A stretch of DNA of 29,956 nt from Candidatus Methylomirabilota bacterium. GTDB lineage: Bacteria > Methylomirabilota > Methylomirabilia > Rokubacteriales > DATEAO01. Positions 2,689 through 29,956 of this stretch are shown one piece after another; positions within the stretch are counted from its first letter, which is position 1; each line of letters begins with the position of its first letter. The translations under genes were made by a program, and so were the position numbers. A model generated the notes under the pieces. It was given only the letters and a program-made list of their open reading frames with translations. It made no database searches and was not told the origin of the DNA. Location of the stretch: the NCBI GenBank assembly GCA_035288345.1, contig DATEAO010000218.1:1-29956 (forward strand). Reading direction: 5' to 3'.

Positions 2689-3690
2689 TCAGAACCTCAC
2701 CTTCACGTCCGGTCTGGGATCTACGTGAATGCTGTCGATGAAGCGGACGCGGTGCGGGTGCGTCTGCATGATCAGCGAGCTGGTGCGGGTACCGTCGCCG
2801 AAGAACCGGACGCCTTTCAGCAGGGTGCCGTCAGTCACGCCGGACGCGGCGAAGATGATCGTTTCGCCCGACGCCAGATCGCGGGCGCGGTACACTCGCT
2901 TCGTGTCTTTGATGCCCATCGTGTGGCAGCGCTCTTCGTGCTCCGGGTTGCTGACCACCAGGCGCGCGAAGATTTCGCCGTTGAGACAGCGCATCGCCGC
3001 CGCTGTCAGCACCCCTTCGGGAGCGCCACCGGTGCCCATCACCGCGTGCACGCCGCTGCCGGCCACCGCCGCGGCGATCCCCGCCGAAAGGTCGCCGTCC
3101 GAGATGAGCCGGATGCGCGCGCCGGTCGCGCGAATGTCGGCCACGAGCTTCTCGTGCCTCGGCCGGTCCAGCACGATGACGACCAGATCTTCCACCTTGC
3201 GGTCCAGGCGACGCGCAATCGCCTGCAGGTTGTCGGCCACCGGGGCGTCGAGACTGACGACGTCTTTCGAGCTGGGTCCGACGACCAGTTTCTCCATGTA
3301 GAGATCGGGCGCGTGCAGCAGTCCGTCGCGCGGCGAGGCGGCGAGCACGGCGATCGCGTTGGGCGACCCCGTGGCGCACAGGTTCGTGCCCTCAAGCGGA
3401 TCAACCGCGATATCGACCTGCGGCAGCCGTCCCCAGCCCGGTCCGCTGCCGGCGCGCGAGTTGGCTAGCCCCACCCTTTCGCCGATATACAGCATCGGCG
3501 CCTCGTCGCGCTCCCCTTCGCCGATGACGATCGTGCCGTCGATCGCCACTGAGTCCATCTCGCGCCGCATGGCCTCGACCGCGACCTGGTCCGACTTGTG
3601 ACGGTCACCCTGGCCCATCGTGTGCGCGCACGCGATAGCCGCCTGTTCGACGACCCGCAGAAACTCGAGTGAGAGATCAGAATCAATCAC
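2689..3690 (-). CDS. glpX: Class II fructose-1,6-bisphosphatase (GlpX)
   Basis: [35 protein letters not shown] motifs; start placed at GTG 3690 behind AAGGGGG. Confidence 0.95.
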
Positions 3691-4007
3691 AGTGGCCCCC
3701 TTGTTTGATTCCCATAGGGCTTCCCCACCCCCATGAGCCATTCTGAGGTCAGGCTTGACTGTCAATTTATCGCTTACTCCGCCGAGACACAAGTGCGATT
3801 ACATTGGCGATCCATGCTCCTTCCCCTCGCCTACGGAGTTATGGACTCAGAAGAGGCGCTGCCACATCGCAGCGGGCTAATTTTGACTCAGGCTGTCTTG
3901 CCTGAACAAGTCCCCTCCTTTTGAATCAGAGTGCGGGGATGGCGTGGCAGGCCGCGCCGAGTGTAAGAAGTCAAAAGGGTGAGAGTACAATTCCGGGATT
4001 GCCGATG

Positions 4008-27478: not shown

Positions 27479-28491
27479 GGGCGCGGTTCTTTCTGGATGA
27501 GCTGCTCAGCGATCTGGATCGCGTTGGTCGCAGCCCCTTTCCGAAGCTGGTCCCCGACGATCCAGAAGAGAAGGCCATGGTCGAGCGAGAGGTCTTCACG
27601 GATCCGTCCCACAAAGCAATCATCCTGTCCCTCGGCGAGGATCGGCATCGGATAGCGGTTCGCTCGAGGGTCGTCCCAGAGTCGGAGACCGGGGAAACCC
27701 TGGAAGAGCTCACGGGCCTTCGACGCGCTGACCTTTCGCTCGGTCTCGACGCGAACAGCAACGGAATGCGCGGTGAAGACCGGAACCCGAACCGTGGTCG
27801 GCGCAACCTGAATGGTCGGATCACCAAGGATCTTTCTCGTTTCATTCACGAGCTTCATCTCTTCTTTGGTGTACCCATTGTCAAGAAACGCGTCGATGTG
27901 AGGAAGGAGGTTGAAGGCGATCCGGTGAGGGAACACTCGGACTTCCATAGGCTCGCCTTTGGACCACGCCAACGTCTGACGGCGCAGCTCCTCAACCGCT
28001 TGGGCCCCGGCCCCTGAGACCGCCTGGTAGCTCGTCGCGACCACGCGCAGGATCCTGGCGTAGTTCTGGATCGGCTTCAGTCCCATGACCATCACGATCG
28101 TGGTGCAGTTCGGGTTCGCGATGATGCCACGATGCTGTCTGAGGTCGTGTGGGTTGATCTCCGGAACGACGAGCGGAACCTGTGGGTCCATGCGAAACGC
28201 GCTCGAGTTGTCGATGACGATCGCGCCGGCTCTCGCCGCCTTGGGAGCCCATTCTAGGCTTCGCGCCGCTCCTGCCGAGAAGAACGCGATCTCGACGCCT
28301 TGAAAGGTCTCTTCGCTGAGCGGCTCCACCCGGAGCGACTCGCCGGAAAAGGCGACCGATTTGCCGATCGAGCGCTCCGAAGCCACGCAGCGAAGCGCCT
28401 TGATCGGGAACTTCCGCTCTTCCAACAGCTTGAGCAAGGTCTGCCCCACCGCTCCGGTAGCGCCGACGATGGCGACGCGATAGTAGCTCAT
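27475..28491 (-). CDS. asd: Aspartate-semialdehyde dehydrogenase
   Basis: VGATGAVG, IDNSSAFR, PLVVPEIN, IANPNCTT, YQAVSGAG, RVPVFTAHS, DQLRKGAA. Confidence 0.97.
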   Translation of the reverse strand: MSYYRVAIVGATGAVGQTLLKLLEERKFPIKALRCVASERSIGKSVAFSGESLRVEPLSEETFQGVEIAFFSAGAARSLEWAPKAARAGAIVIDNSSAFRMDPQVPLVVPEINPHDLRQHRGIIANPNCTTIVMVMGLKPIQNYARILRVVATSYQAVSGAGAQAVEELRRQTLAWSKGEPMEVRVFPHRIAFNLLPHIDAFLDNGYTKEEMKLVNETRKILGDPTIQVAPTTVRVPVFTAHSVAVRVETERKVSASKARELFQGFPGLRLWDDPRANRYPMPILAEGQDDCFVGRIREDLSLDHGLLFWIVGDQLRKGAATNAIQIAEQLIQKEPRP

Positions 28492-28538
28492 TGCTGGAAG
28501 AGCACGTCAAGCTCTCTTACGATCAGGTCCCCCATCTG
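28486..28538 (-). repeat. Duplicate of the leuB 3' end (53 bp, copy of 28748-28800)
   Basis: 52/53 identical (A28519 vs G28781); encodes QMGDLIVRELDVLFQQ* and carries the ATGA overlap with asd. Confidence 0.95.
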
Positions 28539-28747
28539 CCTTCCTCGGAGGGGGGCACGCCCCCCTTCCGACCCTCCCCCAGGGTTGCGCGGGGCTCGCG
28601 TTCGCTCGCCCGTGCCATTGAGTTGCTCGCCTCGCCTCCGGCCGCAGCTCGCCCAACCACGCCCGCGCTCGAACGCGACAACGCATCCCAACGAGCCGAT
28701 GCCAAAACAACGCTGGAACTCATTACGTCAACTCAGATACGTAATAG
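28539..28747. mobile_element. 209-bp structured REP-containing insert between the two leuB-end copies
   Basis: TCGGAGGGGGGCACGCCCCCCTTCCGA (28545-28571), ATTACGT/ACGTAAT hairpin, AGTTGCTCGCCT module; no credible gene. Confidence 0.7.
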
Positions 28748-28749
28748 GC

Positions 28750-29838
28750 TCATTGCTGGAAGAGCACGTCAAGCTCTCTTGCGATCAGGTCCCCCATCTG
28801 ACTGGTTCCCACGAGGGTGGTGCCTTCCCGATAGAGATCCTTTGTGCGGTATCCTTTCTCCAACACTCTGACGACCGCGTGCTCCAGCCGCTCCGCCGCA
28901 TCCGGCATGCGAAAAGAATGGCGGAGCATCATCGCGCCGGAAAGAATCGCCGCGATCGGATTCGCGATCCCCTCTCCAGCAATGTCAGGCGCGGTGCCAT
29001 GCACCGGTTCATACAATGCGGTCGCACCTCCCAGGCTTGCCGACGGGAGCATCCCCATGGAGCCCGTCAGGACCGCTGCCTCATCGGAGAGAATGTCCCC
29101 GAACGTGTTTTCGGTGACGATCACGTCGAAGTCCCGGGGACGCGTGACCAGCTGCATGGCCGCGTTGTCCACGAGCAGATGCTGAAGCGCGACGTCCGGA
29201 TACCCCTTCCACACTTCCGTGATCACTTGACGCCAGAGCTGAGAGGTCACGAGCACGTTCTGCTTGTCGACAGAGGTCAGCCGTTTCTGCCGCTGACGCG
29301 CCACTTGAAAGGCCACGTGCGCCACGCGCTCGATCTCCTCAGTAGTGTAGCTCATCGTGTCCACCGCGCGCATCCCGGTTGCGGTCGGCTCGATTTTTTT
29401 TGGCTCGCCAAAATAGAGCCCCCCAGTCAGTTCTCTCACTACCAGGATGTCGGTGCCCTCGACCACGGATCGCTTGAGCGGCGAGGCGTCCACCAGCATG
29501 GGGAAACATTTGGCGGGGCGGAGGTTCGCATAGACATCAAGCGCCTTCCGAAGGCCCAAAAGGCCGCGCTCCGGTCGTTTGTCATTCGGCGCGTTGTCCC
29601 ACTTCGGGCCGCCCACGGCGCCGAAGAGCACGGCGTGGCTCTTCTGGCACAGCTTGAGCGTGGAATCCGGGAGTGGACTGCCGGTTCCGTCGATGGCAGC
29701 GCCCCCGACCAAGCCGTTCTCAAATTCAAACCCCACGCCCGCTTTCTTTGCAACCACCTTGAGCACCTTGACGGCCTCGCTGATGACCTCAGGGCCGATC
29801 CCGTCACCACCCAGCACCGCGATCTTATAGGTTGCCAT
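28750..29838 (-). CDS. leuB: 3-isopropylmalate dehydrogenase
   Basis: GDGIGPEV, GAVGGPKWD, ANLRP, RELTGGLYFG, DKQNVL, N.FGDILSDEA, EPVHGTAPDIAG. Confidence 0.97.
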   Translation of the reverse strand: MATYKIAVLGGDGIGPEVISEAVKVLKVVAKKAGVGFEFENGLVGGAAIDGTGSPLPDSTLKLCQKSHAVLFGAVGGPKWDNAPNDKRPERGLLGLRKALDVYANLRPAKCFPMLVDASPLKRSVVEGTDILVVRELTGGLYFGEPKKIEPTATGMRAVDTMSYTTEEIERVAHVAFQVARQRQKRLTSVDKQNVLVTSQLWRQVITEVWKGYPDVALQHLLVDNAAMQLVTRPRDFDVIVTENTFGDILSDEAAVLTGSMGMLPSASLGGATALYEPVHGTAPDIAGEGIANPIAAILSGAMMLRHSFRMPDAAERLEHAVVRVLEKGYRTKDLYREGTTLVGTSQMGDLIARELDVLFQQ

Positions 29839-29841
29839 CGG

Positions 29842-29907
29842 TCAGGACACCTTCAGGCCTTTCCTTTTGGCGACGTGTTTCGTCAGGCCGCCGGCTGCCA
29901 TGATCAA
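29842..29907 (-). pseudogene. leuD: 3' stub of an isopropylmalate isomerase small subunit (LeuD-like C-terminus) directly after a REP
   Basis: LIMAAGGLTKHVAKRKGLKVS* resembles the I..AGGL..Y end of LeuD/homoaconitase small subunits and sits upstream of leuB; the in-frame upstream sequence is REP DNA, not LeuD. Confidence 0.55.
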
Positions 29908-29949
29908 CCTCGGAGGGGGGCATGCCCCCCTTCCGAACTTCCCCCCCAG
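29908..29949. repeat. REP-like palindrome (family copy), possibly truncated by the window edge
   Basis: CCTCGGAGGGGGGCATGCCCCCCTTCCGA is 28/29 identical to 28543-28571, with a similar TCCCCC(CC)AG tail. Confidence 0.85.
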
Positions 29950-29956
29950 AAAGCTT

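Follow-up and report, generated by a model that had tools for sequence, protein, structure and literature searches.

At two adjacent junctions of the operon leuA-leuC-leuD-leuB-asd, a short repeat lies between two direct copies of the 3′ end of the upstream gene. The additional copy of the gene end (called the stub below) lies directly before the next gene. The explanation that we favour, and consider probable, is that the repeat was inserted independently at two junctions that were originally free of gaps, each time with duplication of the upstream gene end, and that the stubs constitute putative relay ORFs. The window (the whole stretch of DNA analysed, 29 956 nucleotides) is the entire contig C218 of a Candidatus Methylomirabilota bacterium and ends within the repeat. 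The source genome is a metagenome-assembled draft of 549 contigs, 89 per cent complete and with 3.9 per cent contamination.

Architecture of the leuB–asd and leuD–leuB junctions

The leuB gene (3-isopropylmalate dehydrogenase, PF00180; 28750..29838, minus strand) is intact and codes for 362 amino acids. It is followed on the same strand by asd (aspartate-semialdehyde dehydrogenase, PF01118/PF02774; 27475..28491). A segment comprising the last 16 codons of leuB, its stop and the first two codons of asd completes leuB (28748..28800, minus strand), and a second copy of it forms the leuB 3′ stub (28486..28538, minus strand). The two copies, both inside one contig, are identical at 52 of 53 positions, the single difference being C/T on the mRNA strand. 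Because they include ATGAGC, the first two codons of asd, this is a true duplication across the gene junction.

A non-coding insert of 209 bp (28539..28747) separates the duplicates, which are offset by 262 bp. It contains a palindrome (28543-28571) and a second hairpin that is interrupted by another, nested repeat module (about 28588-28657), as well as a spacer of about 75 nt with a small hairpin; the spacer is found nowhere else in the genome. The nested module also occurs near repeat cores on contigs C374, C47, C491, C231 and C526, in reverse orientation, and C316:3939 shows the same nesting as the leuB/asd core. Just past leuB, the duplicated ATGAGC of asd opens a frame of six codons (MSLLRI and a stop; 28727-28753, minus strand), which runs into a hairpin with a 7-bp stem (TTACGT...ACGTAA).

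At the other end of leuB, an open frame (29842..29955, minus strand) translates as SFLGGKFGRGACPPPR-LIMAAGGLTKHVAKRKGLKVS followed by a stop, running off the window end. The initial 16 residues come from the repeat (palindrome 29908-29936 and core 29937-29956), and the rest matches the C-terminus of the sole full LeuD of the genome, encoded on contig C135 and ending in ...EIMAAGGLMKYVAKKKGLLQGAKSG. This leuD 3′ stub (29842..29907, minus strand) directly adjoins the 29-nt GC-rich palindrome (29908..29936), which is followed by the start of the remaining core of about 75 bp, namely a C-run and linker (29937..29956), cut by the contig end. The initial annotation, made from the window alone, had described a LeuD-like end immediately after a palindrome nearly identical to that preceding the leuB stub, and had taken the in-frame sequence upstream of it as repeat-derived. 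It was right on both points: the two palindromes have the same orientation and agree at 28 of 29 positions, differing at one loop base.

In a whole-genome search, positions 29854-29905 match C135:71-122 with 90 per cent DNA identity (E 1.8e-13), and a flank-based search of the same pair gives 48 bp at 91.7 per cent. C135:71-122 is the single non-repeat match to the window end genome-wide. The full leuD on C135 codes for 169 amino acids and has leuC upstream; the contig begins 46 bp downstream of the leuD stop. The genes leuC, leuD and leuB are each present once in the genome, leuD only on C135 and leuB only on C218.

Contigs of another assembly of the same population extend this picture. One (L022) carries leuA-leuC-leuD and continues for 96 bp beyond the leuD stop; another (L021) begins 141 bp before leuB and carries stub-leuB-asd. 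They overlap by 54 exact bases, which include variants specific to this repeat copy and present once in the genome. Placed on the merged sequence, C135 and C218 show one SNP and leave an unassembled gap of 19 bp, which corresponds exactly to the second hairpin of the leuD-side core. The merged order is leuD stop, spacer of about 42 nt, core of about 75 bp, 3 nt, stub, 3 nt and leuB ATG; a JGI contig (L023) agrees with it. The order of the whole operon is leuA-leuC-leuD-leuB-asd. Precomputed Pfam hits in other assemblies assign Iso_dh to leuB, Semialdhyde_dh/dhC to asd, Aconitase_C to leuD, Aconitase to leuC and HMGL-like/LeuA_dimer to leuA.

An intact leuD ending in nearly the same 65 bp or so had been predicted a few hundred base pairs beyond position 29956. 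These contigs do place a full leuD with a second copy of the stub sequence just past the contig end: the leuD-end duplicates (29854..29905 on the minus strand for the stub copy, compared with the 3′ end of intact leuD on C135/L022) are 192 bp apart, match at 47 of 52 positions and enclose an insert of about 141 bp. The predicted length was too generous, as the match covers about 52 bp and the last codons and the stop differ.

No single contig or read bridges leuD-repeat-stub-leuB, and the join depends on a 54-bp overlap within a repeat, though one that carries copy-specific variants. The stub-palindrome junction itself recurs unchanged in Logan contigs from three different soil metagenome runs, and six soil runs contain this locus. 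It is extremely unlikely that the arrangement is an assembly artefact or chimera, in which the repeat would merely interrupt leuD or C218 and C135 would not be neighbours. Such an error might be suspected in a metagenome-assembled draft with this number of contigs and degree of contamination, where every assembly breaks within the repeat and the Logan contigs also end at the palindrome; but the sequence on either side is the same in three independent assemblies, and the overlap holds genome-unique variants. Moreover, leuC, leuD and leuB are single, relatives keep the order leuD-leuB-asd, and the leuB/asd case, with the same architecture, sits within one contig.

The leuD duplicates part after ...KKGL, the full copy ending in LQGAKSG and the stub in KVS. 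The difference in the last codons means that either the event was not scarless or the copies have diverged since. Three of the five differences within the matching segment are nonsynonymous; all three changed the stub, at positions where relatives have conserved residues (M, Y, K). One synonymous change is in the full copy, and the fifth difference is assignable to neither copy. The stub frame is open, with no indel and no stop. Judging from these substitutions, the leuD stub is no longer constrained as LeuD; its frame is intact.

The repeat family and its position next to genes

The 29-nt palindrome has 70 copies in the genome (at most four mismatches allowed), compared with no matches to a reversed control, and is predicted to fold into an 11-bp stem with a tetraloop. 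All-against-all comparison of the copies defines a shared core of about 75 bp, composed of the palindrome, a C-run and the second hairpin (GCGCSGGC-GAA-GCCSGCGC). In sub-families the core is longer, by up to about 40 bp at one end and by about 170–200 bp at the other. Some 22 core copies lie within a unit of about 240 bp that has inverted ends (GCAGGCTGCTGAAAAAGG...) and, in many cases, TAG or CTAG on its flanks (for example C316:1790-2050 and C437:3660-3940). A long form with the same arm is also present in G002 (L319, L321), a genome of another family. The core of about 75 bp, which is the form found in the leu operon, has neither terminal inverted repeats nor TAG or CTAG flanks.

Beyond this genome, the core is present at 80–91 per cent identity in four or more further families of the order, the genomes of which each have tens to hundreds of candidate copies; the exact palindrome is almost limited to this genome and G002. 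No Rfam family matches the repeat (whalefall-1, with E 0.27, is below threshold). Many contigs end in the repeat, which makes it a main cause of the fragmented assembly, here and for these soil bacteria in general. The depth of words in four soil runs (X1–X4) is about 400–1500 over the palindrome and 3–7 over the unique flank (window 29900-29947), a difference that implies hundreds of palindrome copies, or of organisms carrying it, in these soil metagenomes.

The repeat is placed non-randomly with respect to genes. On the strand on which the palindrome ends in ...CCCCCCTCCGAGG, a long ORF often starts a few nucleotides further on: at 10 of 31 copies with unique flanks, the ATG of an ORF of at least 100 amino acids is located 2–10 nt behind CCGAGG/T, for a null rate of 2.6 per cent at random positions (P about 4e-9). 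The copies in relatives show the same start-codon pattern. At many copies in relatives, the stop codon of a convergent gene lies 3–8 nt from the palindrome end (CCGAGGATCTA...; L154, L159, L169 and L335), so the repeat adjoins both kinds of gene boundary and not starts only.

Two further observations concern the core and its surroundings. On its mRNA strand (for example window 28543-28590), an anti-Shine–Dalgarno-like CCUCC lies in the palindrome's 3′ arm, with two Shine–Dalgarno (SD)-like G-runs, GGGGGAGG and GGAAGGGGGG, upstream; it is therefore conceivable that the RNA can pair in alternative ways that mask or free SD-like sequence. In genome G005, the interval between two tRNA-Ser genes (anticodons CGA and GGA) is occupied by a core (L175, G005:C138:508-1624), the palindrome of which begins 4 nt past the CCA end of the first gene. 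This locus was ruled out as a stub, since the two tRNA-Ser genes flank the repeat.

Ancestral state, frequency of stubs and origin of the duplications

Relatives of the same order, named Candidatus Rokubacteria or Methylomirabilota in their records, are no closer than about 70 per cent in leuB DNA identity, and no LeuB above about 73 per cent identity was found among species-representative genomes, metagenome contigs and genome contigs. They keep leuD-leuB-asd with ATGA/TGATG overlaps or gaps of a few nucleotides at both junctions; the leuB/asd junction of G002 has ATGAGCTAC in common with this genome. Their tight junctions indicate that both inserts were gained in this lineage. The core gave no hits beside leuB at E ≤ 1e-4 in 160 fetched loci, and only G005 has a diverged repeat copy there, at leuD|leuB and free of any stub, with the repeat end touching the leuB ATG. 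A stub is thus not needed for insertion at this junction. A direct repeat was seen downstream of leuB in another relative, at L015 (G017:C70, about 3022-3074 and 3871-3922), where two 53-bp copies with 94 per cent identity are 796 bp apart.

The two inserts of the leu operon differ from each other. Their spacers are unrelated and absent elsewhere in the genome, only the leuB copy has a nested module in its core, and the duplicates are 90 per cent identical for leuD as against 98 per cent for leuB. Two separate insertion events are the simplest reading of these sequences, in agreement with the initial annotation, which had proposed a second, independent event in the adjacent gene. It had further supposed an active, recurrent process. 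Recurrence is borne out, if only as an exception (see below), but there is no sign of ongoing activity.

Stubs were sought in this genome by self-comparison for short-range direct repeats and by comparison of palindrome flanks with the whole genome. They are present only at the two leu junctions, i.e. at two of the approximately 31 copies with unique flanks. Hits on C77 and C297 proved to be paralogous gene starts, and the C24 flank hit is a 24-bp match. A sample of about 87 core copies from the relatives G002, G003, G004, G005 and G014 contains stubs at two loci, both in G004. At the first (L164), a 32-bp gene-end duplicate (...QRLFGRIK-Y/L before the stop) lies on either side of a bare core, and in the full gene CCGAGG is found exactly at the duplicate boundary. 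At the second (L171, G004:C29:28554-29681), the last 75 bp of a gene ending in ...SIEGGTTEIQRNIIAERVLGLPKD, a motif that we take to be typical of acyl-CoA dehydrogenases, are present in three copies: a unit composed of the 75-bp gene end, a 56-nt spacer and the core follows the intact gene in tandem. Unequal exchange between stubs can apparently amplify the unit. Neither G004 stub has an ATG at SD spacing, and downstream of the L164 stub the next gene has an SD sequence of its own at a distance of 30 nt.

Stubs are a rare, recurrent by-product of insertion, and their rarity argues against an obligatory product. Translatable stubs occur where the downstream gene is directly coupled, as selection on insertion outcomes would give; with four cases, this is a pattern and not a test.

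In the scenario that we favour, a REP-like core of about 75 bp (GC palindrome and second hairpin) would have entered the originally gap-free leuD|leuB and leuB|asd junctions separately, each insert being flanked by a direct duplication of some 52–53 bp of the 3′ end of the upstream gene. One duplicate would complete the upstream gene and the stub would remain joined to the downstream gene, which would thereby retain its native upstream sequence and stop/start arrangement.

Several features constrain how the duplications may have arisen. Their lengths are variable (32–75 bp), they are absent at most copies of the repeat, and they can straddle a gene junction. Not every locus has a spacer beyond the core, and where there is one its sequence is peculiar to that locus; in some cases the gene sequence beside the duplicate boundary looks like the end of the repeat. 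These constraints are not matched by a conventional transposase duplication, by an integrase attachment site or by a diversity-generating retroelement. Copy-choice or templated insertion fits them, as would an unusually wide staggered cut. Our preferred guess is templated insertion or template switching, i.e. copy-choice during replication or repair with return to the template upstream of the exit point; a long staggered-cut target duplication would be the alternative. Microhomology at the junction is clear in one event only (L164, CCGAGG). At the leuB junction, CAGATGGG is common to the junction and the arm of the long-form repeat, and at the leuD junction there is a CGAG..ATC resemblance; both resemblances to the repeat are suggestive only. 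A search of this genome, which is 89 per cent complete, revealed no locus that could have donated the spacers.

Duplication of the 3′ end of the target gene is typical of integrating elements, and direct repeats of 50–75 bp at gene 3′ ends are within their size range. The duplicates could on this ground be taken for attachment sites of a site-specific integrative element, decayed to 140–210 bp. We consider this very unlikely: the inserts (about 141 and 209 bp) consist of the high-copy core and short spacers and include no integrase or other cargo, one and the same core, identically oriented, is found at both adjacent junctions and at the G004 loci, and the leuB duplicate continues past the stop into asd.

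Candidate relay ORFs and comparison with known systems

The CCGAGG end of the palindrome, normally at SD distance from start codons, is positioned 6–7 nt before an in-frame ATG of each leu stub. On the mRNA strand, the leuB-side palindrome presents GAGG, 7 nt and ATG GGG GAC, the ATG being the methionine codon of LeuB ...SQMGDLI.... The resulting mini-ORF of 15 codons (MGDLIVRELDVLFQQ; 28488-28535, minus strand) ends in a TGA that overlaps the asd ATG (ATGA). On the leuD side, CCGAGG ends 6 nt before ATG GCA GCC, which starts at the methionine of LeuD ...EIMAAGG...; this mini-ORF of 19 codons (MAAGGLTKHVAKRKGLKVS; 29842-29901, minus strand) has its TGA 3 nt before the leuB ATG. Examination of the 15 nt before the asd ATG gave no SD-like sequence; leuB has one of its own, AAGGTG. 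Termination on the 15- and 19-codon stubs would hand ribosomes to asd through the ATGA overlap and to leuB across the 3-nt gap. Such overlaps and short gaps are reported to support termination–reinitiation coupling (PMC6728339 and PMC10666635). A translational relay through the putative stub ORFs is plausible on these grounds. The predicted hairpin pairs the CCGA of CCGAGG, half of it in the stem, so access to the SD-like sequence is uncertain, and the G004 stubs, with no ATG at SD spacing, indicate that a relay ORF is not a general property of stubs.

A possible, if on balance unlikely, alternative is that the stubs are neutral scars: insertion would occasionally duplicate 30–75 bp of target, and the leftover would be functionless, with the spacing of the ATG a coincidence or by-product. 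The rarity of stubs both here and in relatives agrees with this, as do the G004 stubs that have no suitably placed ATG, the free drift of the stub peptide and the tolerance by G005 of a stubless repeat at leuD|leuB. However, both operon stubs begin with an in-frame ATG 6–7 nt past GAGG, for which the chance in such a window is about 3.6 per cent each, asd has no SD-like sequence of its own and retains the ATGA overlap with the stub stop, and both stub frames are still open.

We return to independent insertion with duplication and its possible consequences. Overlapping or abutting gene pairs should exclude insertions, because the inserted DNA disrupts one of the genes or severs the coupling to the second. 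An accompanying duplication of about 50 bp would be a natural way round this, as it restores the upstream gene and keeps the start context of the downstream gene; selection would then favour insertions after which both genes are still whole. The stubs, if translated, are ready-made short ORFs whose sole job is ribosome delivery, which would explain how the repeat family spreads through compact operons. On the practical side, such stubs risk annotation as truncated genes or pseudogenes. A broader idea, which we regard as doubtful, is that this order-wide (Rokubacteria-type) repeat acts as a portable ribosome-binding module and that the duplication adds a host-derived relay ORF, making insertion into operons safe. 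If true, this would be a route for selfish repeats into overlapping gene pairs without polar damage, not described in the literature searched. Overall, as read from the sequences, the arrangement is a tidy, uncommon outcome of ordinary repeat insertion, and a translational consequence is plausible.

The repeat resembles the REP/BIME elements of proteobacteria, which are high-copy, GC-rich, imperfect extragenic palindromes, often located within a few nucleotides of coding sequence and forming mosaics with other modules (PMC3733652). REP palindromes have a conserved GTAG or CGTC tag at one end (PMC3733652); the present repeat has no such tag, its consensus ending in CCTCGG... and ...TTCCGAAC. 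Flanking duplications of 50 bp are not mentioned for REP elements in the literature searched. No repeat-flanked RAYT or Y1 (HUH) transposase was found in this genome, bearing in mind its 89 per cent completeness, and PF01797 homologues are present on C114 and C125. The best (49.6 bits) is a Y1 (IS200/IS605-type) homologue with an internal TAG (G000:C114:1512-1835), with a second fragment at the contig start; no repeated sequence surrounds the C114 homologue.

Some similarity to MITEs may be seen in the core copies, about 22, within the unit of about 240 bp with terminal inverted repeats, and in the direct repeats that flank the leu inserts. Target duplications made by transposases are usually 2–14 bp long. 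Unlike those of MITEs, the direct repeats here measure 32–75 bp and are present at about 3 per cent of copies only, and terminal inverted repeats are absent from the core of about 75 bp. A diversity-generating retroelement differs from the present case in that the duplicates show no adenine-specific differences (C/T in leuB, mixed in leuD) and that the repeats are about 52 bp long.

The ATGA overlap of the stub with asd and the 3-nt gap between stub and leuB are like the geometries of ATGA/TGATG coupling (PMC6728339 and PMC10666635), except that the upstream partner would be a remnant ORF of 15–19 codons and not a full gene. MIRUs are repeats between operon genes that contain a small ORF coupled to the downstream gene by a 4-nt overlap, which is thought to minimize the cost of insertion (PMC12548453, a review that cites Supply et al. 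1997). The leu inserts share with them a short, mobile-looking repeat between operon genes and a small ORF placed for coupling to the downstream gene. They differ in that the repeat is a GC palindrome, most copies of which have no ORF, whereas the MIRU is a tandem unit of 40–100 bp, and in that the small ORF derives from the upstream host gene, of which it is a duplicated part, and not from the repeat, which supplies only the GAGG in front.
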